From Candidatus Omnitrophota bacterium (GTDB lineage Bacteria > Omnitrophota > Gorgyraeia > Gygaellales > Profunditerraquicolaceae), in the NCBI GenBank assembly GCA_043814315.1, contig JBDRKE010000024.1, positions 4,680 through 68,679 of the forward strand: DNA of 64,000 nt, written 5' to 3'. Positions within the stretch are counted from its first letter, which is position 1. Each line of letters begins with the position of its first letter. Positions 432-59,917 of this stretch are shown in pieces. The notes below the pieces were generated by a model. It worked only from the letters and a program-made list of their open reading frames with translations. It did not search any database and was not told the DNA's origin. The position numbers and the translations under genes were made by a program.

Positions 432-1223
432 TTATCTTGTATCCTTCAGCTTAATAACGGGTTCCTTGAATCGCAGGTCTATGTATTTTATATTATTCCA
501 TTCCTTCTTTGCGGCGACCATAAGGTTAGCTAACACAGCAACCTTGTACCCGACTCTATCCGAGCTCAACTTGACTTCCAGCCCTTCATAACGCAGGGTG
601 CTATCGATATATTCATAATCGCTTGTGCCCGGTATAACAAAAACGCAAGCATTGGTCGTATTGGGAACGTCTATTTTTCTGATTTTATAATCTCTCAATA
701 CCTTGTTCCTTTTGGCTTCTTTTATAATACTTAAAGCAAACTCCAGCTCCTTGATATTGTATTTTTGCCCGATTTTAGGCCCAAAAATTTTGGTTTCCAT
801 CCCTAGGATAACAGGCAAACCGTATTCCTGCGAGTCAACAAGAGCAGGAACCTCAAAAAGCACCTGATCCTCATCCAGGGCGAAGACCCTGTATAATTTT
901 ATCAAAGCCACTGGCTTCCTTTTTATGAGGTTGATAAAAATTCTGTTGGGTAAAATCCTGACCATCCGAATTCTTTTGCATTCAGGGAAGTATTGTAAAA
1001 TATTTCTGGACTCTTGCCTTAAATCTAAACTCAGCAAGTTTCTGCCTTTTAAGTAAGAAAAATCAATGGTGGTATCGTCCCTGGTTAATACTTCTGTGAT
1101 CTTAAATTGGTCGGAGGTTCTTAAGAATCTCCAGGTATAGATTACAATAAATGTCAAAGTAAGAAGAATTGTGGCATAAAAACATATCCGTTTAAAGGGA
1201 ATCTTCAACTTATTCTTTTTCAT
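432..1223 (-). CDS. ftsQ: cell division protein FtsQ (TM + POTRA-like)
   Basis: 263 aa ORF with an N-terminal TM helix, positioned between ddl and ftsA. Confidence 0.75.
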   Translation of the reverse strand: MKKNKLKIPFKRICFYATILLTLTFIVIYTWRFLRTSDQFKITEVLTRDDTTIDFSYLKGRNLLSLDLRQESRNILQYFPECKRIRMVRILPNRIFINLIKRKPVALIKLYRVFALDEDQVLFEVPALVDSQEYGLPVILGMETKIFGPKIGQKYNIKELEFALSIIKEAKRNKVLRDYKIRKIDVPNTTNACVFVIPGTSDYEYIDSTLRYEGLEVKLSSDRVGYKVAVLANLMVAAKKEWNNIKYIDLRFKEPVIKLKDTR

Positions 1224-2187
1224 AAGCGATTTTTATCAATTCAAGGCATAAGGTGCCGAACTCTATACCGACGGCCTTAGCGGCTTTAGGCAGCAGGCTC
1301 GTAGATGTCAGGCCGGGGATCGTATTGACCTCCAAAACAACGACATCATTATAGTCGCTTAAAATCATATCCACCCTGGAGAACCCCCTACAACCTAAAA
1401 GTTGATGGGCCCACAAGGCAGCTGTGCTTACTTTCTCGGCAATACCCTCTTCTAACGGGGCCGGCACCGCATAGTCTGTCATGCCGGGTTGATATTTTGC
1501 CTCATAATCAAAAAAGAGATTTCTCGGGATAATCTCTATGACAGGGAGGCTTTGCCGATTGAGTATGCCTACCGTCACCTCCCTTCCTTTTATGTACTCC
1601 TCCATAAGGATTCTATCATCAAAAGTAAATGCCAGATCAATGGCTTTCTTTAACTTGTCCTTTTCGCGAACAATAGATAATCCTATACTTGAGCCCTGGG
1701 TCACTGGTTTAATAACCAAAGGGAAGTTCAGGCGAGGGTCAAGTTCTAATTCCCCGTGATAGGAGGCCCTGTCTAATAATTTATATTGGGGCACTCGTAA
1801 TCCATGGGATTCAAATATCGAGCGCGAAGCCGCCTTATCCATGGCTAACTGGCTTGCCCGGACGCCAGAACCCGTATAGGGAATTTTCATCGTCTCCAAA
1901 ATATCCTGGATCTGTCCGTCTTCTCCAAAACGGCCGTGCAGAGCTAAAAAGGCGCAGTCTATTCTTTTTGATTTTAGCAATTTTACATTTTCTTCAACGC
2001 TATCCGTCGTGATGTCAATAGCCAGAACCTCCAGCTCCAGGGATTTGAGGGCTTCATAAACCGCACTCCCCGACTTCAGCGAAATCTCTCTCTCTGAAGA
2101 AAGGCCGCCCATTAAAACGCCTATTGTGCCAAAATTGTTGCTGGTCCTTGGGCTCGTGAGTGCACCGGTTCTCTGATTCATCGCCAT
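1210..2187 (-). CDS. ddl: D-alanine--D-alanine ligase
   Basis: 325 aa ATP-grasp protein (GVLMGGLSSEREISLKSG, ALHGRFGEDG, LEVNTIPG) in the dcw context. Confidence 0.95.
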   Translation of the reverse strand: MAMNQRTGALTSPRTSNNFGTIGVLMGGLSSEREISLKSGSAVYEALKSLELEVLAIDITTDSVEENVKLLKSKRIDCAFLALHGRFGEDGQIQDILETMKIPYTGSGVRASQLAMDKAASRSIFESHGLRVPQYKLLDRASYHGELELDPRLNFPLVIKPVTQGSSIGLSIVREKDKLKKAIDLAFTFDDRILMEEYIKGREVTVGILNRQSLPVIEIIPRNLFFDYEAKYQPGMTDYAVPAPLEEGIAEKVSTAALWAHQLLGCRGFSRVDMILSDYNDVVVLEVNTIPGLTSTSLLPKAAKAVGIEFGTLCLELIKIAYEKE

Positions 2188-3068
2188 ATTCTTATTTCCG
2201 GCTCTAGATTTATATCAAATTTGCGCTTGACCTTTTTTTTCATTATGTTCATCAATTTTAAAACATCGCTGCAACGCGCCGAGCGAAGGTTTAATATGAA
2301 ATTGGCGTGCCTTTTGGATACAACGGCACCGCCGCTTTCCTTTCCCTTTAACCCGCACAGATCTATCAATCGGCCGGCAGTATATCCGGGAGGATTACGA
2401 AATATGCATCCGGCGTTAGGAGCCAAGCTGTCTTGAGTGTTTTTACGCAACGCCAGATATCTTTTTATAAGGCCGTTTATTTCTTTTTTGCTCTTCTTAT
2501 GAAGCCTCAGGCGCGCGCTTAAAATGATATATTTTGCCAGACTTGACTTTCTATAACCGAATCTGATCTGTTTTTTATTTAAAACTTTTATCTTTCCATT
2601 ATAATTCATAACCTTGACTTTTTCCACTAAATTACCTAAGGCCTGACCCCAGGCGCCGGCGTTCATGGCCAGGGCCCCTCCTACGGTGCCGGGTATACCG
2701 GCCAGAAATTCTGCCCCTGACAAAGAATGGTTTTTGGCTAACTGTACCAATCGGCCAAGAGACAAACCGCTATTCACAGTCAGGAGGTTGCCGGATATGG
2801 ATGCTTTTTTAAAAAAGGGCGCATTAAACTTCACCACTACAGCCTCAACACCCCTGTCGCTGGCAAGGATGTTGCTGCCCCTGCCCATCAAGAGAACAGG
2901 AATCTTTTGAATTCTCGCCCAGGCGACCAATGCCTTCAGGTCCTTTAAGCCCCTGGGTTCAATAAAAAATTGCGCCGGTCCTCCGATTCGAAAAGTTGTG
3001 TGTTTGGCCAGCGGTTCTTTCCGTTTAATCCTTCCTTTGATTGTGTCAAACACGCTCCCTTTCATCAT
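2178..3068 (-). CDS. murB: UDP-N-acetylenolpyruvoylglucosamine reductase
   Basis: 296 aa with the LAKHTTFRIGGPA motif and an FAD-binding fold pattern. Confidence 0.95.
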   Translation of the reverse strand: MMKGSVFDTIKGRIKRKEPLAKHTTFRIGGPAQFFIEPRGLKDLKALVAWARIQKIPVLLMGRGSNILASDRGVEAVVVKFNAPFFKKASISGNLLTVNSGLSLGRLVQLAKNHSLSGAEFLAGIPGTVGGALAMNAGAWGQALGNLVEKVKVMNYNGKIKVLNKKQIRFGYRKSSLAKYIILSARLRLHKKSKKEINGLIKRYLALRKNTQDSLAPNAGCIFRNPPGYTAGRLIDLCGLKGKESGGAVVSKRHANFILNLRSARCSDVLKLMNIMKKKVKRKFDINLEPEIRIWR

Positions 3069-4447
3069 GCCCTGTTCTCTTTTTTACCCGCATGCAGAGT
3101 TTCTGACAAAGAATCGCTCACCTTGGCAATATCCCCTGCTCCGAGGGTCATCACCAGATCCCCAGGCCTAAGGATCTTCAGAATATCTTCAGCGACCTGC
3201 TCTGTAGGCCATAAAAAAACATCTTTATCCGGCGCGTGCTGTTTAATTCTTTCCAAGACGCACTGACTGTTGACTCCTGGGATAGGAAGTTCACTGGCCG
3301 GATAGATATCTGTGAGAATGACCGTATCCGCTAAATCAAAACTCTCCCCAAATTCGCTCAAGAGAAGTTTCGTCCTTGAATAGCGGTGCGGCTGAAAAAC
3401 AACGATAATCCTTTTGCGGCCAAGGTTCTTGACCGCCTCCAGAGTCGCTTTGATCTCCGTCGGATGATGCGCATAATCGTCGATCAGCAGAAAATTTGAA
3501 TCGCAGAATTTAATCTCAAGCCTCCGGCCGGCTCCTTGAAAGCCTTTAAGGGCCCCTCTAATGAACTTTAAGTCTATTTTGAGCTCCAGCCCCAAGGCGA
3601 TAACGGAAAGCGCGTTGGAGATATTATGCCAGCCACCTAAAGCCAGTTCAAATCTATCGATGAACCGGCCCTTTGAAAAACAGTCAAACTCCGACGCCAG
3701 GCCCGCCCGTTTGATATTTTTTGGATAAATATGCGCGGTTTCCCGCAGGCCGAATAACACAAATCTTCCCCCGTACTCCTTAAGCATATTTTTTAAATAA
3801 GCGTCGTCATCACAACAAAAAACGCAACCCTCTTCCTGCGTCTTGTCCAAATATGCCTTAAAAGCTTCCAGCTCCCTGTCAAACTCTTTATAATAATCCA
3901 GGTGCTCCCGGTCTATATTAGTAATAATGGAATAGTCGGGGCGGTAATACAAAAAGGAGCCGTCGGATTCATCTGCTTCTACCACAAAAAATTCACCGCT
4001 GCCCAGGCACGAATTGGTATCGATATTTTTCAAGATCCCTCCGACGGCAACACAGGGCTGTAAGCCCGCTTCCAGTAAAAGCGCGGATATCAAGGAAGCC
4101 GTTGTGGTTTTTCCGTGGCTGCCTGCAACCGTAATAACTTTTTTCCCTTCCATCAGCCGGGCCAAAACCTCTGCCCGCCTTAGAACAGGAAGCCCGAGGC
4201 TCCTGGCCTCCCGCATCTCCGGATTCTCTTCTTTAATCGCCGAGGAATAACAAATCGTTTCAGCTTTGCGTATATTCTGCGGGTGGTGCCCGATAAAAAT
4301 CCTGGCTCCCAATTTTTTAAGCTCTTGGGTGATCCTGGTTTCTTTTAAATCGGATCCGCTTACGCTCGCGCCCTTTCGCAAAAGCAGCTTGGCAATACCG
4401 CTCATCCCGATACCGCCGATACCGATTAAGTGATAGTGCTTATTCAT
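3065..4447 (-). CDS. murC: UDP-N-acetylmuramate--L-alanine ligase
   Basis: The protein starts MNKHYHLIGIGGIGMSG and has GSHGKTT. I place the start at ATG 4447, which overlaps the upstream stop as ATGA. The longer ORF-track start at 4561 is an out-of-family extension. Confidence 0.93.
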   Translation of the reverse strand: MNKHYHLIGIGGIGMSGIAKLLLRKGASVSGSDLKETRITQELKKLGARIFIGHHPQNIRKAETICYSSAIKEENPEMREARSLGLPVLRRAEVLARLMEGKKVITVAGSHGKTTTASLISALLLEAGLQPCVAVGGILKNIDTNSCLGSGEFFVVEADESDGSFLYYRPDYSIITNIDREHLDYYKEFDRELEAFKAYLDKTQEEGCVFCCDDDAYLKNMLKEYGGRFVLFGLRETAHIYPKNIKRAGLASEFDCFSKGRFIDRFELALGGWHNISNALSVIALGLELKIDLKFIRGALKGFQGAGRRLEIKFCDSNFLLIDDYAHHPTEIKATLEAVKNLGRKRIIVVFQPHRYSRTKLLLSEFGESFDLADTVILTDIYPASELPIPGVNSQCVLERIKQHAPDKDVFLWPTEQVAEDILKILRPGDLVMTLGAGDIAKVSDSLSETLHAGKKENRA

Positions 4448-7504: not shown

Positions 7505-7528
7505 AAAATAACCCTCTTGCGACGTTAA

Positions 7529-7706
7529 GTCAAATCCAAATCACAAAGCACAAAACACAAAACAAGCCCAAAGCACAAAATCCAAAATAAAGAATCCTTT
7601 GTTTTGAATTTTGAGTTTTGGCACTTCGACTGCGCTTGAGAGCCAATGGTGAGCGGAGTCGAACCATTGGATTTATTTTGAATTTTGAATTTTGACATTT
7701 GAATTT
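7529..7706. repeat. LC-family long hairpin (copy R2) with a nested NW module
   Basis: The A/C-rich arm is caaatccaaatcacaaagcacaaaacacaaaac... The G/T-rich arm is tttgttttgaattttgagttttg ... atttattttgaattttgaattttgacatttgaattt. The right end is near-identical to the right ends of R4 and R5. Confidence 0.7.
7620..7670. repeat. NW module (ggcacttcgactgcgcttga..ccaatggt-loop-accattgg), nested in R2
   Basis: An 8-bp stem ccaatggt/accattgg. The same module recurs at 59798-59872 with a 24-nt insertion. Confidence 0.7.
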
Positions 7707-9007
7707 ATCTTAGTAGTATTCTTCTTTAGGCTAGAGACCGCTTTCTTAAAGACATTCCCTCTTTCTTCATAGCCGGAAAACATATCAAAGCTTGAACACA
7801 TGGGGGATAATAACACAGAGTCTCCTGGCACGGCCTTTCGATAAGCCTTAAGAACGGCTTCTTCTAAACTGCCGGCTTCTTCAATGGACAGGGTGTCTTT
7901 AAGCACCTGAGCAATTTTCTCCTTTGCCTCGCCGATCAGAATAACTTCTTTTACTTTTTGGCGCGCCTGTCCCAGAATGATCCCGTAATCCACCCCCTTA
8001 TCCTTGCCTCCGGCAATCAAAATGACAGGCGCCTGAATGTTATTTAAGGCCCAGAGGGCCGAATCGGCTGTCGTCGCCTTGGAATCGTTAATGAATCTTA
8101 TATGATTTATTTCCGCCACCTGTTCTAGGCGGTGCTCAATGCCTTTGAAATCTCTAAGGACTCTTAAAACCGATTCCTGATCGATGCCTAGGATCGAACC
8201 CACCGCTACTACGGCAGCCTGATTCGGATTCAATTCTTTTGTTTGTGAAAAAAAGATAGGCCGGGCTTTTGTTTCCTTCGCTAAATCTCTTAATACGGGG
8301 TCATCCTGATTCAGAACCACATAATCGAACTTATCCTGATTCTCAAAGATCCTTTTCTTTGCCTCAAGATACTCCTGCATATTCTTATACCGGTCCAAGT
8401 GGTTACGGGTGAAATTTAAGATCACGGAAATCTTCGGCTTAAACGTGACGATATTCTCCAACTGAAAAGAGCTTACCTCAAGCGTCACAAAATCCTTCTC
8501 TCTTATCCTGCGCACTTCCTGAGAAAAAGGGTTGCCGATATTGCCGCAAATGAACACCTGCTTACCGCTGGATGAAAGGATCCTGCCGATTAACGTGGTG
8601 ACAGTGGTCTTGCCGTTTGAACCTGTAATGGCTATGATTTCGCCGGGACATAAACTCCAGGCAAACTCAATCTCGCTGATGATGAGAGTATTTTCTTGTT
8701 TTGCCCACAGGATGGGCGAGGCATCAGAAGGAACACCCGGAGAAATAATCAATAAATCCTTATCTATTACAAACTCCTGCGAGTGTCTGCCCAACTCCGC
8801 TTTTATGGCTTTTGATTTTAACTTCAATCTATGGGCGCGCGTGCTGTCATCATCCTTATAGTCCGTGACGCTTACATCCGCTCCTAAATCCCAAAGCAGA
8901 TTGACGCAGGCCACCCCTGAGCGGCCCAGGCCTACCACTACCACTTTTTTATTTTTATAATAATCCGTGTTACGCATAGTAAAAATCTGATAAATCTCAA
9001 ATGCCAA
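7673..9007 (-). CDS. murD: UDP-N-acetylmuramoylalanine--D-glutamate ligase
   Basis: VVVVGLGRSG and GSNGKTT motifs. The start is 9007 or ATG 8977. The last ~11 codons (INSNVKIQNSK) are encoded by the R2 repeat arm. Confidence 0.9.
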   Translation of the reverse strand: MAFEIYQIFTMRNTDYYKNKKVVVVGLGRSGVACVNLLWDLGADVSVTDYKDDDSTRAHRLKLKSKAIKAELGRHSQEFVIDKDLLIISPGVPSDASPILWAKQENTLIISEIEFAWSLCPGEIIAITGSNGKTTVTTLIGRILSSSGKQVFICGNIGNPFSQEVRRIREKDFVTLEVSSFQLENIVTFKPKISVILNFTRNHLDRYKNMQEYLEAKKRIFENQDKFDYVVLNQDDPVLRDLAKETKARPIFFSQTKELNPNQAAVVAVGSILGIDQESVLRVLRDFKGIEHRLEQVAEINHIRFINDSKATTADSALWALNNIQAPVILIAGGKDKGVDYGIILGQARQKVKEVILIGEAKEKIAQVLKDTLSIEEAGSLEEAVLKAYRKAVPGDSVLLSPMCSSFDMFSGYEERGNVFKKAVSSLKKNTTKINSNVKIQNSK

Positions 9008-9010
9008 GCA

Positions 9011-9051
9011 CCCTGCCTACCCTGCCTACCGGCAGGCAGGCGGCAGGCAGG
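9011..9051. repeat. GC palindrome, cctgcc family (double length)
   Basis: The sequence is ccctgcctaccctgcctaccggcaggcaggcggcaggcaggc. The A/G differences give G-U pairs only on the minus-strand RNA. Confidence 0.7.
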
Positions 9052-9052
9052 C

Positions 9053-9166
9053 AAATTCCAGATAAATTACAAATCACAAATTCCAAATTACAAACTCATG
9101 AGTTTCGGACATTGTGATTTTGGATTTGGGATTTGTTTGGGATTTGGAATTTGGAAATTGGGATTT
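9053..9166. repeat. LC-family hairpin (copy R3)
   Basis: The aaattcc..caaatcacaaattccaaattacaa arm faces ttgtgattttggatttgggatttgtttgggatttggaatttgg. The centre is a perfect palindrome, aaactcatgagttt (9092-9105). Confidence 0.65.
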
Positions 9167-9189
9167 AACTTATTATTTGTCATTTCGGC

Positions 9190-14838: not shown

Positions 14839-14962
14839 TACTAGTAAACTAGTAACTCGGTGACTAGTAATCCGAGGCAAAACGAATGGAGCCTAAAATA
14901 CTTATATCCTTTTTAAGCTATGCATGGCAAGTTACTAGTTACGAAATTACGAGTTACCGAGG
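14839..14962. repeat. 'actagtaac' word hairpin in the ftsL-ftsI spacer
   Basis: tactagtaaactagtaactcggtgactagtaatccgagg faces caagttactagttacgaaattacgagttaccgaggg. The right arm overlaps the ftsL stop. Confidence 0.55.
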
Positions 14963-16698: not shown

Positions 16699-16929
16699 CG
16701 AGCACTTGACTTATGGTGCACTAAGTCCGCCATAAGTCAATTCTCCTTTTGTGTATTCCGCTTCTTGTACGAACTTACCCCCCCTCCACCACTTTCAATA
16801 TAGCACAGGTTATAGCGAAAGTGGTGGGGGGTGAATTCGCCCAAACAACTTACGTTCGCTTGCCGCACAAGCGGCACACCGACTGATCCGATAAAGCCGG
16901 GTGCTCGCTCCGTAAGTTGTGGTCTCATC
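16699..16929. repeat. composite palindromic element, copy A (H1 16699-16745; H2 16778-16831; H3 16833-16929 with nested 48-nt insert 16860-16907)
   Basis: It shares modules with 27386-27600, 29944-30090, 32088-32246 and 62140-62195. It occupies the mraZ 5' leader between the operator and the ATG. Confidence 0.8.
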
Positions 16930-17994: not shown

Positions 17995-18011
17995 TATCAG
18001 TGTCAACAGTG

Positions 18012-18086
18012 TCAAGATCGGGTCTTGTAATAGATTGAGAAATAATGAGTTGCAAGACCCGATCTTGAGGCGGTTTTGAGGCGGTT
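18012..18086. repeat. K hairpin copy 1 plus tandem tgaggcggtt x2
   Basis: Arms are tcaagatcgggtcttg (18012-18027) and caagacccgatcttga (18053-18068). The tandem 10-mer is at 18066-18086. Confidence 0.8.
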
Positions 18087-27385: not shown

Positions 27386-27600
27386 AAGTGAGTGCACAAT
27401 TTATAGAACGCAATCTTTCGCTTCGTTCAGGATTATCCTAAGAAACGAAATGCCGAAGGATGAAGTGAACATATATTGTATGCTCGAACTTACCCCCCAC
27501 CACTTTCATTATAGAGTAAGCTAAATAAGAAAGTGGTGGGGGGTCAAATTCAGACATACAACTTACGTCATTTCATTCCGTAAGTTGTGTCTTCATTTAA
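27386..27600. repeat. composite palindromic element, copy C (H1-like 27386-27485; H2 27493-27543; H3 27545-27600)
   Basis: It fills the whole ribD-stop to ribE-start interval. The H2 arms are ccccccaccactttc/gaaagtggtgggggg, and the H3 stem is acaacttacg/cgtaagttgt. Confidence 0.8.
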
Positions 27601-32167: not shown

Positions 32168-32195
32168 CCATCGGCTCTGGAATCTCGCCAGATCT

Positions 32196-32246
32196 CCCCC
32201 CACCACTTTCGCTTTTAACCTGTGCTATATCGAAAGTGGTGGGGGG
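32196..32246. repeat. H2 module copy E, inside the riboswitch (P4-hairpin position)
   Basis: ccccccaccactttcg / cgaaagtggtgggggg. The loop is the reverse complement of the loop in copy A. Confidence 0.8.
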
Positions 32247-32834: not shown

Positions 32835-32922
32835 CAAGATCGGGTCTTGGAATATCTTGATAGACAACAAGTTACAAGACAAGTTACAAGACCCGATCTT
32901 GCGAGAGGGATCTTGCGAGAGG
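32835..32922. repeat. K hairpin copy 2 with tandem duplications at both borders of the right arm
   Basis: Arms are caagatcgggtcttg (32835-32849) and caagacccgatcttg (32887-32901). aagttacaagac x2 lies at 32869-32892, and gatcttgcgagagg x2 at 32895-32922. Confidence 0.8.
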
Positions 32923-45544: not shown

Positions 45545-45617
45545 TCAAGATCGGGTCTTGTAACTCATTATTTACCAAACTATTTCAAGACCCGATCTTA
45601 AATTTCTTAAATTTCTG
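45545..45617. repeat. K hairpin copy 3 plus tandem aaatttct(t/g) x2
   Basis: Arms are tcaagatcgggtcttg (45545-45560) and caagacccgatctta (45586-45600). The loop is about 80% identical to the reverse complement of the K1 loop. Confidence 0.8.
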
Positions 45618-47825: not shown

Positions 47826-49463
47826 TCACATCTTCTCTGGTCTTGAAATACCCAGGAGCTTGAGCCCCTGGGCAGTAACGATCCGGGTGGCTTCGATGAG
47901 AGAAAGCCTGGCTTTTGTCAGCTCCTCTTCCTGGCCCAGAACGCGGTGGAGATCATAAAATTTATGGAAGGTTTCGGAGAGTTCCTGCAGGTAGACGGTC
48001 AGCATATAAGGATCTGTGGTACTCAGACAAATATTCAATATATACGGAAACTGCAACAATTTTTTTATCAGGCTTATTTCTTCTTTTTCCTTAAGGAGAG
48101 ACAATCGTACCTCTTTATCTAATTTGTGAGTGTTTTCTTTAAGAATACTGCGGATTCGGGCATGGGCATACTGAATATAATAAACGGGGTTTTCGGGAGT
48201 GTGTTTCTTGGCTATGTCTAAATCAAAATCCAGAAGACTTGAGGTCCGGCGCATCAGGAAAAAGAACCGGGAGGCATCCACACCCACCTCATCCAGGACA
48301 TCTCTCAGCGTGATGTATTGGCCTTTACGCGTGGACATCTCCAATGATTTTCCTGATTTAAAGATAGAGGCTAATTGCACGATGAGGATAGACAGGCTCT
48401 TCGATTCATGGCCCAGCGCCTGCACAGCGGCTTTTAGCCTATTTATGTAACCGTGATGGTCAGGACCCCACAGATTGATCAGCCAACGAAAGCCGCGAGC
48501 GTATTTTTCCCGATGATAAGCAATATCGGGAGCCAGATACGTGTAAGCTCCGTCGCTCTTGATCACCACCCTGTCTTTATCATCGCCGAATTCCGTAGAC
48601 TTAAACCACAGGGCACCCTCCTGTTCATATAAAAATCCCTTTTTCTTTAAGAAATCCAGCGCCTTATCAATCTTACCGCTCGTCCTCAGATCCTTTTGAG
48701 AATACCAATAATCAAACTTGACCCCGAACTCGCTCAACTCTTTTTTAATAATATCTAATATATACCCTGCCGCAAACTCTCCTAAGCTTTGAGCTTTGAG
48801 CTTTGAGCTTTGAGCTTTCCTGGCTATGTCGTAAATATAATCTCCCTGGTAATAGTTTTCAGGAAAATCGATTTTTTCACCGTCTGATTCCTTGAGCCTT
48901 AACTCAACGGATTTCCCCAAGATATCAATCTGATTACCTTCGTCATTCAAGTAATATTCCCTTTTGACCTTAAAATTTAAGAAATCTAAGATGTTGGCCA
49001 AGCAATCTCCTACGGCTGCCTGCCGGGCGTGGGCTACCGATAAAGGACCCGTAGGATTGGCGCTTACAAACTCAATCAAGACGGGCCGACCCTTACCGAG
49101 GTTAATTTTTAAAGCACCGATTCCCTTTATCACTAAATCCTTTAACTGCTCATAAAAATAATCGTCGTTTAAATAGAAATTGATAAACCCTCCTCCCTCA
49201 ACTTTAACGTGACTCACCATATCCCAAGCAGGGCTTCTTTCCAATTGTTTTTTTATGGAATCAGCGAGAATCTGGGCTATTTCCGGGGGGGGTTTTCGAA
49301 CCTTCTTTTTTAAACGAAGGGCAATGCTGGTAGATAAATCGCCGAAACGCGGATCCGTGGGAAAATCGAGGTTTATATCCTCAGGAGTATCTTTATCTAA
49401 TCCAAACTCCTTCAAGGCTTCACCAATAATTTCTATCAATACGTCCTGAATATTCTGTTTCAT
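47826..49463 (-). CDS. argS: arginine--tRNA ligase
   Basis: Class I aaRS with SANPTGPLSVAHAR (HIGH-like) and MSTRKG (KMSKS-like). I prefer the ATG at 49463; the ORF-track TTG at 49475 is possible. Confidence 0.93.
   Translation of the reverse strand: MKQNIQDVLIEIIGEALKEFGLDKDTPEDINLDFPTDPRFGDLSTSIALRLKKKVRKPPPEIAQILADSIKKQLERSPAWDMVSHVKVEGGGFINFYLNDDYFYEQLKDLVIKGIGALKINLGKGRPVLIEFVSANPTGPLSVAHARQAAVGDCLANILDFLNFKVKREYYLNDEGNQIDILGKSVELRLKESDGEKIDFPENYYQGDYIYDIARKAQSSKLKAQSLGEFAAGYILDIIKKELSEFGVKFDYWYSQKDLRTSGKIDKALDFLKKKGFLYEQEGALWFKSTEFGDDKDRVVIKSDGAYTYLAPDIAYHREKYARGFRWLINLWGPDHHGYINRLKAAVQALGHESKSLSILIVQLASIFKSGKSLEMSTRKGQYITLRDVLDEVGVDASRFFFLMRRTSSLLDFDLDIAKKHTPENPVYYIQYAHARIRSILKENTHKLDKEVRLSLLKEKEEISLIKKLLQFPYILNICLSTTDPYMLTVYLQELSETFHKFYDLHRVLGQEEELTKARLSLIEATRIVTAQGLKLLGISRPEKM
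48786..48818. repeat. heptanucleotide tandem repeat (gctttga x4.7) inside argS
   Basis: It is read directly from the sequence and encodes AQSSKLKAQSL on the minus strand. Confidence 0.9.
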
Positions 49464-53296: not shown

Positions 53297-53335
53297 GAGA
53301 ATTTAGTTTACGCTCAATTGGTTATTGATAATATT

Positions 53336-53492
53336 AAATGACAAAGCACAAGGTTATCAATAAATTCAAATACCAAAGCACAAAGCACAAATATCAAAAC
53401 AGAGAATTTCTTGTTTTGAATTTTGGGTTTTGCCTGCCTGCCGGCAAGGCAGGGATTTATTTTGAATTTTGAATTTTGTCATTTGTGCTTTA
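53336..53492. repeat. LC-family hairpin (copy R4) with a nested cctgcc palindrome
   Basis: The left arm aaattcaaataccaaagcacaaa is identical to the R5 left arm. The right end atttattttgaattttgaattttgtcatttg is shared with R2. Confidence 0.7.
53432..53454. repeat. GC palindrome, cctgcc family
   Basis: gcctgcctgccggcaaggcaggg lies at the apex region of R4. Confidence 0.7.
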
Positions 53493-54688: not shown

Positions 54689-54834
54689 AAATAACTCCTC
54701 TATTCTTAGCGGCCTGCCTAGTCTGTGCTTTCGCGGGGACGTTCGTTTTGCCCCTGCGAGGCAAAACTTCACTCGTCTCGGCTGCGTCGTCTTTTCCCAT
54801 GCTCAAAGTAAAGATAGGGAAAGGATGCCCGCTC

Positions 54835-54854
54835 CCTGCCTGCCGGCAGGCAGG
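54835..54854. repeat. GC palindrome, cctgcc family (perfect 20-mer)
   Basis: cctgcctgccggcaggcagg. Confidence 0.75.
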
Positions 54855-54926
54855 CTTGCCTCCACGCCCCGCTCAATCACAGCCAAGCCATCCCGCTAAA
54901 AAATTACCTAATCGATGACTTTATTA

Positions 54927-55163
54927 AATAATGACTCTGCCATTTTCGAGCGAATGGAGATTTTAGCAAGAGGAGCTTGAGCATTTGAGGGAATCCCAGT
55001 GGAGCGCTAGCGACAACACTGGGACGGCTGCGGGTGTTTGAGCGACGAGGCAAAGGCCGAGGAGCGAGTTACGCAGACGCCGAAAATGCGAAAGAACTCT
55101 TGCGTCCCCCGCCGCTGGCGGGGGAAAAGCGACCTGAGCGAGAAAATCGGCAGAGGCATTATT
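54927..55163. repeat. ~237-nt structured domain closed by a ~24-bp stem, in the trpF-trpB spacer
   Basis: The closing arms are aataatgactctgccattttcgagcg and gcgagaaaatcggcagaggcattatt. Internal hairpins include cccagtg/cactggg and cccccgcc/ggcggggg. Confidence 0.6.
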
Positions 55164-55189
55164 AAAAATTTTCTTAAATCTATAAAGAG

Positions 55190-58282: not shown

Positions 58283-58408
58283 AAAATTCAAATACCAAAG
58301 CACAAAATCCAAAATAAACTCAAAGCACAAAATCTAAAACTAAAAAGGTTTGTTTAGAATTTTTGATTTTGGATTTGTTTTGTGCTTTGGATTTTGTCAT
58401 TTGAATTT
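58283..58408. repeat. LC-family hairpin (copy R5) in the murA-trpG spacer
   Basis: The arm aaattcaaataccaaagcacaaaatccaaaataaa... faces ...ggatttgttttgtgctttggattttgtcatttgaattt. There is an internal ~26-nt direct duplication. Confidence 0.7.
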
Positions 58409-59702: not shown

Positions 59703-59917
59703 GAAATTCCAAATCACAAATCCCAAATCGCAAACAAATCCCAATACCGAAATCCCAATGTCCGAAATAAAAGATTTATTTCGGAATTTTGCAAATTGGC
59801 ACTTCGACTACGCTTGAACGCCAATGGTGAGCGGAGTCCTGAGCCTGTCGAAGGGCGAAGCCGAACCATTGGAATTTATAATTTGTTTGTAATTTGTGTA
59901 TTGGGATTTGGGATTTT
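59703..59917. repeat. LC-family hairpin (copy R6) with a nested NW module and a small inner hairpin
   Basis: The arm gaaattccaaatcacaaatcccaaatcgcaaacaaatccc... faces aatttataatttgtttgtaatttgtgtattgggatttgggattttt. The inner hairpin is tccgaaataaa/tttatttcgga (59761-59785). Confidence 0.7.
59798..59872. repeat. NW module copy 2 (with a 24-nt insertion at 59839-59862)
   Basis: ggcacttcgactacgcttgaacgccaatggtgagcggagtc[ctgagcctgtcgaagggcgaagcc]gaaccattgg, compared with 7620-7670. Confidence 0.75.

Follow-up and report, generated by a model that had tools for sequence, protein, structure and literature searches.

Heptamer-array palindromes between cell-wall and tryptophan genes of an Omnitrophota bacterium belong to a widespread family

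In a stretch of 64,000 nucleotides from a Candidatus Omnitrophota genome (contig JBDRKE010000024.1; hereafter the window, the 64 kb of this genome that we could read), six gaps between cell-wall, tryptophan and neighbouring genes contain long imperfect hairpins, which we call R1 to R6. These hairpins are genuine copies of a widespread and apparently undescribed palindromic family, the arms of which are tandem arrays of heptamers. With a probability of roughly 0.6, we regard them as selfish palindromic insertion elements without an open reading frame (ORF) that resemble the intervening sequences (IVSs) of 23S rRNA. A preliminary description of the window had reported the hairpins and taken them for homologous copies with a possible function in RNA processing, stabilisation of 3′ ends or decoupling of cistrons. 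Their presence and homology were borne out by our analysis. The proposed function was not borne out in the form given there, and processing by RNase III gains indirect support only, from the relation of the arms to those around IVS-type four-helix-bundle genes.

Six hairpins built from heptamer arrays

By sequence reading and folding, an imperfect hairpin was found in each of the six gaps for which one had been claimed. R1 (281–431) lies between ftsQ and ftsA and abuts the ftsQ stop codon, R2 (7525–7712) lies between murD and ftsW, R3 (9053–9166) between mraY and murD, R4 (53331–53492) between trpB and trpA, R5 (58283–58408) between murA and trpG, starting 3 nt past the murA stop codon, and R6 (59703–59917) between prmC and murA; none of them is assigned to a strand. 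Compared with 200 dinucleotide shuffles, each of the six folds more stably on either strand (z scores between −3.2 and −6.2). R1 reaches −3.2 on the plus and −6.2 on the minus strand, and R2 has a minimum free energy (MFE) of −56.6 and a z score of −5.4. Inverted repeats with arms of 23–42 nt and 73–88% complementarity were detected in five of the six gaps (R2–R6; repeats I1–I17), including I6 and I17 in R2, I1, I3 and I12 in R3, I4 and I9 in R5, and I2 and I14–16 in R6. The hairpin of R1 is known from the RNA folds and not from the inverted-repeat search.

Tandem Repeats Finder resolved the arms into period-7 tandem arrays with units such as CAAATCA, CAAAGCA, TTTTGAA and TTGGGAT. When one mismatch at most is allowed, the pattern (CAAANNN)3CAAA is matched 18 times in the window, where 0.02 matches are expected. 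These matches mark left arms on the plus strand and right arms on the minus strand of all six hairpins, including R1, and are confined to R1–R6 save for one array, matched at 48788–48819. Moreover, strong self-match occurs in seven regions of the window at a lag of 7 and in none at lags of 5, 6, 8 or 9. On each strand, every element consists of a 5′ half of the form (CAAANNN)n and a 3′ half of the form (NNNTTTG)n. Because the elements are palindromic, the same polarity, an A/C-rich and G-poor 5′ arm followed by a G/T-rich and C-poor 3′ arm, is read on either strand.

The internal architecture differs between copies. The outer arms of R1 are built from (AAATCCC)-type heptamers, with the 3′ arm at 399–431, and enclose a second heptamer hairpin at ~310–380 with the units GTCGATA and ACCATAG. 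R2 is made up of a left arm (7529–7594), an inner hairpin (7569–7620) and a right arm (7670–7706). A reading of the GGGATTT arms as G-quadruplexes was dropped, since R2, R4 and R5 are without G-runs. A scan of the whole window with Rfam at the gathering threshold returned tRNA-Pro alone and no rRNA, so that none of the hairpins corresponds to a known RNA family.

The sequence words that had been quoted as common to several copies proved exact. R2 and R5 have an exact 23-mer in common, as do R4 and R5, and R2 and R4 have an exact 25-mer in common. Furthermore, R2 and R4 can be aligned colinearly from the left arm through the inner hairpin to the right arm; the GC-rich modules that they carry at the corresponding internal point differ. 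R1 and R6 have a common 16-mer. To represent the family independently of the window, a profile hidden Markov model (A1) was built from 28 copies that all come from other organisms. This profile matches R5 (E = 5.9e-22), R4 (4e-14), R2 (2.6e-11), R3 (5e-9) and R6 (2e-5), the R2 match covering 7532–7639 with a second segment at 7662–7702 and the R3 match covering 9052–9163. The claim of homology rather than shared composition is thus upheld for five of the six hairpins. The A1 search of the window gave no match to R1, and R1 is therefore counted as a member only through the generic heptamer pattern.

The foreign copies align with each other across 133–134 nt and have a sharp 5′ boundary. The family consensus reads TAAATYCAAATGACAAAGCACAAAATCCAAAATAAATCC...AAAAC, a loop, and then GTTTTG...ATTTATTTTGTGCTTTGAATTTTGTCATTTGACATTA, and R5 is the window copy nearest to it. 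The elements are small, typically ~110–215 nt, present in many copies, bounded by terminal inverted repeats and without coding capacity. The preliminary description knew of no published account of such a family; our literature searches by sequence words and by topic likewise gave none, and we found no paper that describes the ORF-less hairpins or ties genes of the Pfam family PF05635 to inverted heptamer arrays.

The window has a G+C content of ~0.44, and its genes lie almost all on the minus strand. Pfam confirmed the labels FtsW, MurD, MraY, TrpA, TrpB, TrpG, MurA and PrmC at their positions; FtsQ and FtsA were recognised solely by alignment to relatives. The right arm of R2 encodes the final 12 codons of murD and its stop codon (to 7673), and the last ~14 codons of prmC lie within the right arm of R6. 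At its other end, murD starts, according to alignment with relatives, at the ATG at 8977 and not at the TTG at 9007, where the longest frame opens within a GC palindrome beside R3; the public record has a 444-aa version. As murD begins at ATG 8977, the mraY-murD gap truly spans 8978–9189. The family of heptamer hairpins thus corrupts gene calls, both by spurious C-terminal tails and by wrong start codons.

The array at 48785–48819 on the minus strand, a perfect (CAAAGCT)5, is one-armed. It is read in frame (KAQSSKLKAQS) inside the arginyl-tRNA synthetase (ArgRS) gene and is only a candidate for the heptamer family. Slippage by one unit would frameshift this essential gene.

Spread and turnover of the family

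Scanning metagenome contigs with the R2/R5 23-mer, three positions of which were left degenerate, yielded 99 stretches from many samples, with G+C contents from 0.27 to 0.62 and none from the organism of the window. About 30 contigs of one sample carry near-identical copies with unrelated flanks. Taxonomy was assigned to the metagenome contigs indirectly, from protein identity or homologues of the encoded proteins. Many of the contigs are Omnitrophota, with proteins 54–77% identical to window proteins or Omnitrophota reference loci, and further ones are apparently Patescibacteria, as judged by close homologues of their four-helix-bundle protein. The 23-mer was not found in viral contigs, so a phage vector is without evidence. 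When the six copies were compared by short-word BLAST with 80 cell-wall-cluster loci from other genomes, almost nothing was returned, whereas the A1 profile recovered copies in L005 and L044 (fetched loci carry the prefix L). Crude composition detectors, such as A/C-rich or G-free runs, were dropped as unspecific.

Family copies are also found outside intergenic DNA. In low-GC contigs, copies or half arrays lie in frame within ArgRS, MnmA, a P-type ATPase and another protein, and L100 contains a complete 134-nt copy (1479–1612) in a group I intron (1347–1741) that is itself located in a 23S rRNA gene (1007–4330).

Three side observations concern the surroundings of foreign copies. In-frame arrays together with GC mini-hairpins in L128, L109, L135, L086, L087, L121, L107 and L178 add peptides rich in lysine, glutamine, serine and asparagine, comparable to the Rickettsia palindromic elements (RPEs). 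The Patescibacteria-like L128, L109 and L135 have in-frame heptamer arrays in ArgRS at a site that differs from the 48785–48819 site of the window. In the loci of sample Ga0208325 (e.g. L088, L115, L129, L141 and L146), family copies are flanked by other heptamer arrays, with the units AGTGAAC or AGTGATC upstream and TATCTTG or TAACTTG, or CTCTGCT, downstream. Because these further vocabularies flank the family copies, the intergenic regions of this sample are mosaics of several types of heptamer array.

The MraY protein of the window is at most 80% identical to that of any species representative, and its top matches are exclusively Omnitrophota. At the junctions of the division and cell-wall (dcw) cluster in Omnitrophota relatives, the mraY-murD gap is 5–21 nt in most, the murD-ftsW gap is 0–6 nt, and ftsQ and ftsA overlap by 11–23 nt. 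The window gaps at ftsQ-ftsA, murD-ftsW and mraY-murD measure 168–212 nt. In addition, the window MurD ends in a 12-residue tail, KINSNVKIQNSK, that is read from R2 and is without counterpart in all relatives (≤80% identical), whose MurD has 422 aa and no extension. Other lineages carry copies at junctions of their own. L170 and L142, as well as L117 and L172, have copies at junctions where the window orthologues overlap, and L115 has copies at other dcw junctions. L005 carries its own copy at the murD-ftsW junction, like R2, and L134, with a TrpB 74% identical to that of the window, has a trpB-trpA copy in the orientation opposite to R4. By this alignment of junctions, the elements are shown to be insertions at the dcw junctions, with turnover between lineages. 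The comparison of presence and absence at orthologous junctions had been proposed in the preliminary description; the variation between related lineages that it revealed argues against the functional reading given there.

Stop-start overlaps that relatives keep intact between essential cell-wall and tryptophan genes are disrupted by the elements, and therefore this lineage must express these genes from transcripts interrupted by 110–215-nt stems. The Omnitrophota lineage thus offers a natural test of how much intercistronic structure is tolerable in an operon.

Origin of the elements and rival explanations

Tests for an RNA or junction role were performed on the wider sample of copies. Among 70 copies between co-directional genes, 37 have the same orientation as the genes and 33 the opposite one. 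The idea that orientation relative to transcription matters, which had come from five of five window copies, was rejected with these numbers. For 82 copies with a defined context, the junctions are tandem in 69, divergent in 8 and convergent in 5 cases, compared to 66.6, 7.6 and 7.8 expected from background gene pairs in the same loci. The suspected enrichment at operon junctions is therefore not seen, as the junction types equal the background. The copies take up the whole spacer but for short margins: the median distance is 19 nt from the end of the upstream gene and 21 nt to the next start, according to ORF calls that are crude in the fetched loci.

RNAalifold gave 31 consensus pairs that are essentially invariant, with no covariation. 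In eight 134-nt copies, pairing at variable positions was 0.54 within copies compared to 0.55 in the between-copy control. The conserved feature of the copies is instead the strict 7-nt phase of CAAA and TTTG. With neither an orientation bias nor compensatory covariation, the suggestion of an evolved regulatory-RNA role found no support. No terminator-like site occurs on the sense strand in any of the six elements; the sole terminator-like match, the inner GC hairpin of R4 with its T-run, lies on the antisense (plus) strand. The co-directional genes and the lack of a sense-strand terminator signature agree with the earlier view that the hairpins sit in apparently polycistronic units. Taken together, these outcomes largely coincide with those that the preliminary description had named as refuting its reading, and they point to a selfish insertion element over an evolved regulatory RNA.

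The search for a partner led to the four-helix-bundle gene. PF05635 is the four-helix-bundle "23S rRNA intervening-sequence protein", or S23p, which is related to the retroelement accessory protein Avd. In L084 and L092, family arms with the exact 23-mer flank a 120-codon ORF, and the same holds for L094, where the ORF is reversed. The window copies are without a PF05635 ORF, whereas the homologous arms in these three loci enclose one. An iterative search of all ORFs in the fetched loci identified six PF05635 genes, all of them located between inverted heptamer arrays, each with its own unit vocabulary. Five further homologues, picked so as to sample different taxa (Nitrospirota, Planctomycetota, WOR-3, Shapirobacteria and one unassigned metagenome-assembled genome), likewise all lie between inverted heptamer arrays, in an arrangement that is inserted between co-directional genes. 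In total, 11 of the 11 PF05635 genes examined have inverted heptamer arms, three of them with the family 23-mer, in a sample that is small and partly selected via this 23-mer. A strict lag-7 detector missed degenerate arms, and a softer comparison of lags was used: the 22 arms show a self-match peak at lag 7 (0.52, versus 0.30–0.42 at other lags), and are A-rich and G-poor upstream and T-rich and C-poor downstream of the gene.

Published work on IVSs contains several parallels. In Coxiella, the IVS forms a stem of terminal inverted repeats around the S23p ORF, and upstream of this ORF are tandem heptameric repeats, the number of which differs from strain to strain; RNase III cuts at the first repeat (PMC4990558). 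PF05635 genes were also reported from positions between cas genes (PMC3936711) and from insertions in the rRNA of candidate-phyla bacteria (PMC11270868). Like the rRNA IVSs of Salmonella, Leptospira and Coxiella, which combine terminal inverted repeats that form a long stem with an optional small ORF, the window copies form such a stem, and their relatives hold a PF05635 gene between the same arms. The heptamer arrays have their parallel in the tandem heptameric repeats in the 5′ part of the Coxiella IVS. One foreign family copy even lies in a 23S rRNA gene, albeit within a group I intron. Moreover, rRNA IVSs are regarded as selfish and horizontally spread, a likeness that we draw to the family as well. 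In contrast to IVSs, the window copies lie between protein genes and not in rRNA helices 9, 25 or 45, are ORF-less, and have arms that are heptamer arrays over their whole length; RNase III cleavage is carried over to them from IVSs by analogy.

Since the arms of three cassettes carry the window 23-mer, the window copies relate to PF05635 cassettes roughly as MITEs, the miniature transposable elements with inverted repeats, relate to full transposons. A wider and tentative proposal, to which we give clearly less than an even chance, is that PF05635 genes may be the cargo of a very large, multi-phylum class of hairpin cassettes with inverted heptamer-array arms. Classical rRNA IVSs would then be copies that landed in rRNA, the ORF-less window copies would be non-autonomous derivatives, and the four-helix-bundle protein would read the arrays, one unit per subunit, and so aid spread or processing. 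Since about 1990 it has been asked where rRNA IVSs and their four-helix-bundle ORF come from and how they spread. If the arms across phyla are indeed heptamer arrays of the same kind, IVSs would be the visible part of a far larger mobile family, and the cassette proposal would imply a new mode of mobility with neither target duplication nor a classical transposase.

For the window copies as IVS-like insertions, the following course of events can be envisaged. The elements would have landed in the tiny or overlapping spacers of the dcw, trp and prfA-prmC-murA operons. They sit just past the upstream stop codon, at times in its place, and ~20–35 nt with the ribosome-binding site remain ahead of the following start codon. 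They would be co-transcribed in the operon mRNA, fold into long imperfect stems and, as IVS stems are in rRNA, probably be cut by RNase III. Cleavage would separate the cistrons, and translational coupling would be replaced by independent initiation at a ribosome-binding site outside the stem. The cell would then tolerate the elements rather than need them.

Several observations weigh against selfish insertion. Mobility is inferred from distribution and not from mechanism, because 45 copies showed no excess of 2–8-nt direct repeats at any offset over a shuffled control, as target-site duplication would produce, and the fetched loci yielded no transposase, reverse transcriptase or HUH enzyme. 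Split arms 0.4–4 kb apart in these loci held only four-helix-bundle cargo and no transposase partner. The insertions cannot be dated, since the closest relatives have only ~80% protein identity. All five profiled window copies are antisense to the genes, with a strand difference below 5 bits for R3 and R6 and with no bias in the wider sample. CAAA and TTTG recur without change every 7 nt, with the three remaining positions free to vary, and the exact 23-mer persists across what appear to be different phyla. Both suggest a sequence-specific constraint, for example through a binding protein, which would be superfluous for a purely neutral parasite. As for the link to IVSs, the A1 profile gives only weak matches (E = 0.006–0.1) to the independent 3′ arms from L094, L084 and L092, and no four-helix-bundle gene was found in the window, where the small ORFs tested with Pfam are housekeeping genes.

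The alternative closest to the preliminary description holds that the hairpins serve the host as intercistronic RNA elements, namely RNase III sites, 3′-end stabilisers or translational decouplers through which the expression of neighbouring cistrons relative to each other is set. The sense-strand stems are long and stable, the elements fall precisely in the interval from a stop codon to the following ribosome-binding site with no sense-strand terminator, the murD-ftsW and trpB-trpA junctions are occupied in a second lineage too, and the stems of the related IVSs are RNase III substrates (PMC4990558). However, a host-serving RNA is difficult to reconcile with unbiased orientation, with tandem junctions that are not enriched over background and with the lack of compensatory covariation. 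Furthermore, most relatives are without elements at the same essential-gene junctions, and copies also lie within coding sequences and an intron. We therefore consider this explanation unlikely. A smaller chance still, about that of a long shot, goes to the arrays being binding sites, on DNA or single strands, with one heptamer per protein subunit and the hairpin potential as a by-product; candidate proteins would be the four-helix-bundle protein, a cold-shock protein or a nucleoid protein. This would account for the strict 7-nt phase of CAAA and TTTG with chance-level pairing elsewhere, for the A-rich then T-rich polarity of all subfamilies and for the existence of one-armed arrays, and CspB, according to a study cited in PMC4679880, binds heptamer units with one protein per unit. 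Yet self-complementary arms are seen in each of several very different subfamilies, which argues that pairing or palindromic symmetry itself matters, no binding protein was identified, and a four-helix-bundle gene was not seen in the window.

It is very improbable that the hairpins are local heptanucleotide microsatellites, like the cyanobacterial short tandemly repeated repetitive (STRR) or TAACTGA sequences, that grew by slippage at each junction and merely resemble a dispersed family. The period-7 arms, the units that appear shuffled between copies, the perfect (CAAAGCT)5 array in the ArgRS gene and the heptamer repeats known from intergenic DNA of other phyla (PMC4679880) would fit such an origin, but it is largely refuted by the alignments, in which copies from many organisms are colinear, ends and loop included, for more than 130 nt. 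The non-repetitive identities of 23–25 nt, the strong profile E-values and the ~30 near-identical copies with unrelated flanks in one sample speak against it as well. Least probable of all, at a few per cent, are intrinsic transcription terminators or attenuators between the genes. Although the hairpins have a T-rich 3′ arm and the inner GC hairpin of R4 with its T-run scores as a terminator, this match is on the antisense strand and no element has one on the sense strand. In addition, the stems are AT-rich and imperfect, and the cell would not survive termination between mraY, murD and ftsW.

Among known repeat families, the elements recall the bacterial MITEs (Correia/NEMIS of Neisseria, RUP, Nezha and QMITEs), which are likewise small non-coding sequences found in many copies between genes and whose inverted ends give hairpins on read-through transcripts. 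Some MITEs, such as Correia elements, are targets of RNase III. Unlike MITEs, the heptamer elements lack a target-site duplication, have an inverted repeat that is full-length and 7-nt periodic, and have in the fetched loci no transposase-bearing partner with the same ends, the four-helix-bundle gene being the sole cargo. RPEs are palindromes of 100–150 nt that insert in frame and add peptide segments, as do the family copies in ArgRS, MnmA and the ATPase of related loci and the C-terminal tails of murD and prmC in the window, but they have no sequence relation to the heptamer family. RPEs are not known to occur outside Rickettsia or to have heptamer periodicity.

Repetitive extragenic palindromic (REP) sequences, with their bacterial interspersed mosaic element (BIME) and REPIN arrangements and their REP-associated tyrosine transposases (RAYTs), are likewise extragenic palindromes without target duplication that form mosaics with other palindromic modules. 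However, REPs are 20–40 nt long, GC-rich, mostly placed at gene 3′ ends and tied to RAYTs, whereas the heptamer elements are 110–215 nt, AT-rich and show no preference for a junction type; no RAYT was seen in the part of the genome that could be read. The cyanobacterial STRR sequences and the TAACTGA repeats of Beggiatoaceae, cyanobacteria and Bacteroidetes are, like the arms described here, intergenic tandem heptamers with a patchy distribution across phyla, often near start codons (PMC4679880). They are direct arrays of one unit, in contrast to the inverted, degenerate CAAANNN arrays with conserved non-repetitive ends described here, and no link to PF05635 was reported for them (PMC4679880).

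Nested modules and neighbouring hairpins

Some copies contain GC-rich modules. R2 carries one on the plus strand at 7621–7669, GCACTTCGACTGCGCTTGA..CCAATGGTGAGCGGAGTCGAACCATTG, and the same module (GCACTTCGACTRCGCTTGA..CCAATGGTGAGCGGAGTC..GAACCATTG) is nested in R6 at the same relative position (59799–59871), with an extra insert of 24 nt; no other copy of it was found in the fetched loci. At the position colinear with the R2 module, R4 has a different GC hairpin (53433–53453), which L151 has at the same internal site. A GC-rich palindrome of the CCTGCCTACCGGCAGGCAGG type, without strand assignment, adjoins R3 at 9010–9053. The 20-nt GC-rich palindrome CCTGCCTGCCGGCAGGCAGG recurs, as exact or near-exact copies, in the window at 9021–9040, 54835–54854 and 53433–53453 and in contigs of different organisms (L004, L015, L094, L109, L128, L151 and L167), often in or beside heptamer arrays.

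The 417-nt gap between the phosphoribosylanthranilate (PRA) isomerase gene and trpB (54773–55189) contains the CCTGCCTGCCGGCAGGCAGG palindrome and folds very strongly, with an MFE of −155 kcal/mol. Over 343 nt it shows 72% identity to L004:20616–20922, a segment that follows ftsA in a different genome of the Omnitrophota, and Rfam gave no match to it even at E ≤ 1. This region could be a non-coding RNA or another kind of dispersed element.

A seventh intercistronic hairpin of the cell-wall operon lies at 14840–14957, between ORFs of 569 aa and 142 aa, and is built from the heptamers ACTAGTA and AGTTACG. It was absent from the preliminary description and is not matched by the A1 profile. Two further hairpin types occur in three copies each. 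The hairpin CAAGATCGGGTCTTG, with a perfect stem of 15–16 bp, is found at 18005–18075, 32835–32901 and ~45545–45601; the copy at 32835–32901 has CTTGTAA-type heptamers in its loop, the same vocabulary that flanks elements in sample Ga0208325. The other type, CCCCCCACCACTTTC ... GAAAGTGGTGGGGGG, is intergenic and lies at 16782–16831, ~27445–27500 and ~32170–32230.

Heptamer runs have been described in a different setting in the jamaicamide cluster of the cyanobacterium Lyngbya, where the intergenic regions upstream of jamI and jamG include AATTCAA- and GGGAATC-type runs and showed promoter activity in an Escherichia coli reporter (PMC2799420). By analogy, the jamI and jamG case hints that heptamer arrays may create promoters.

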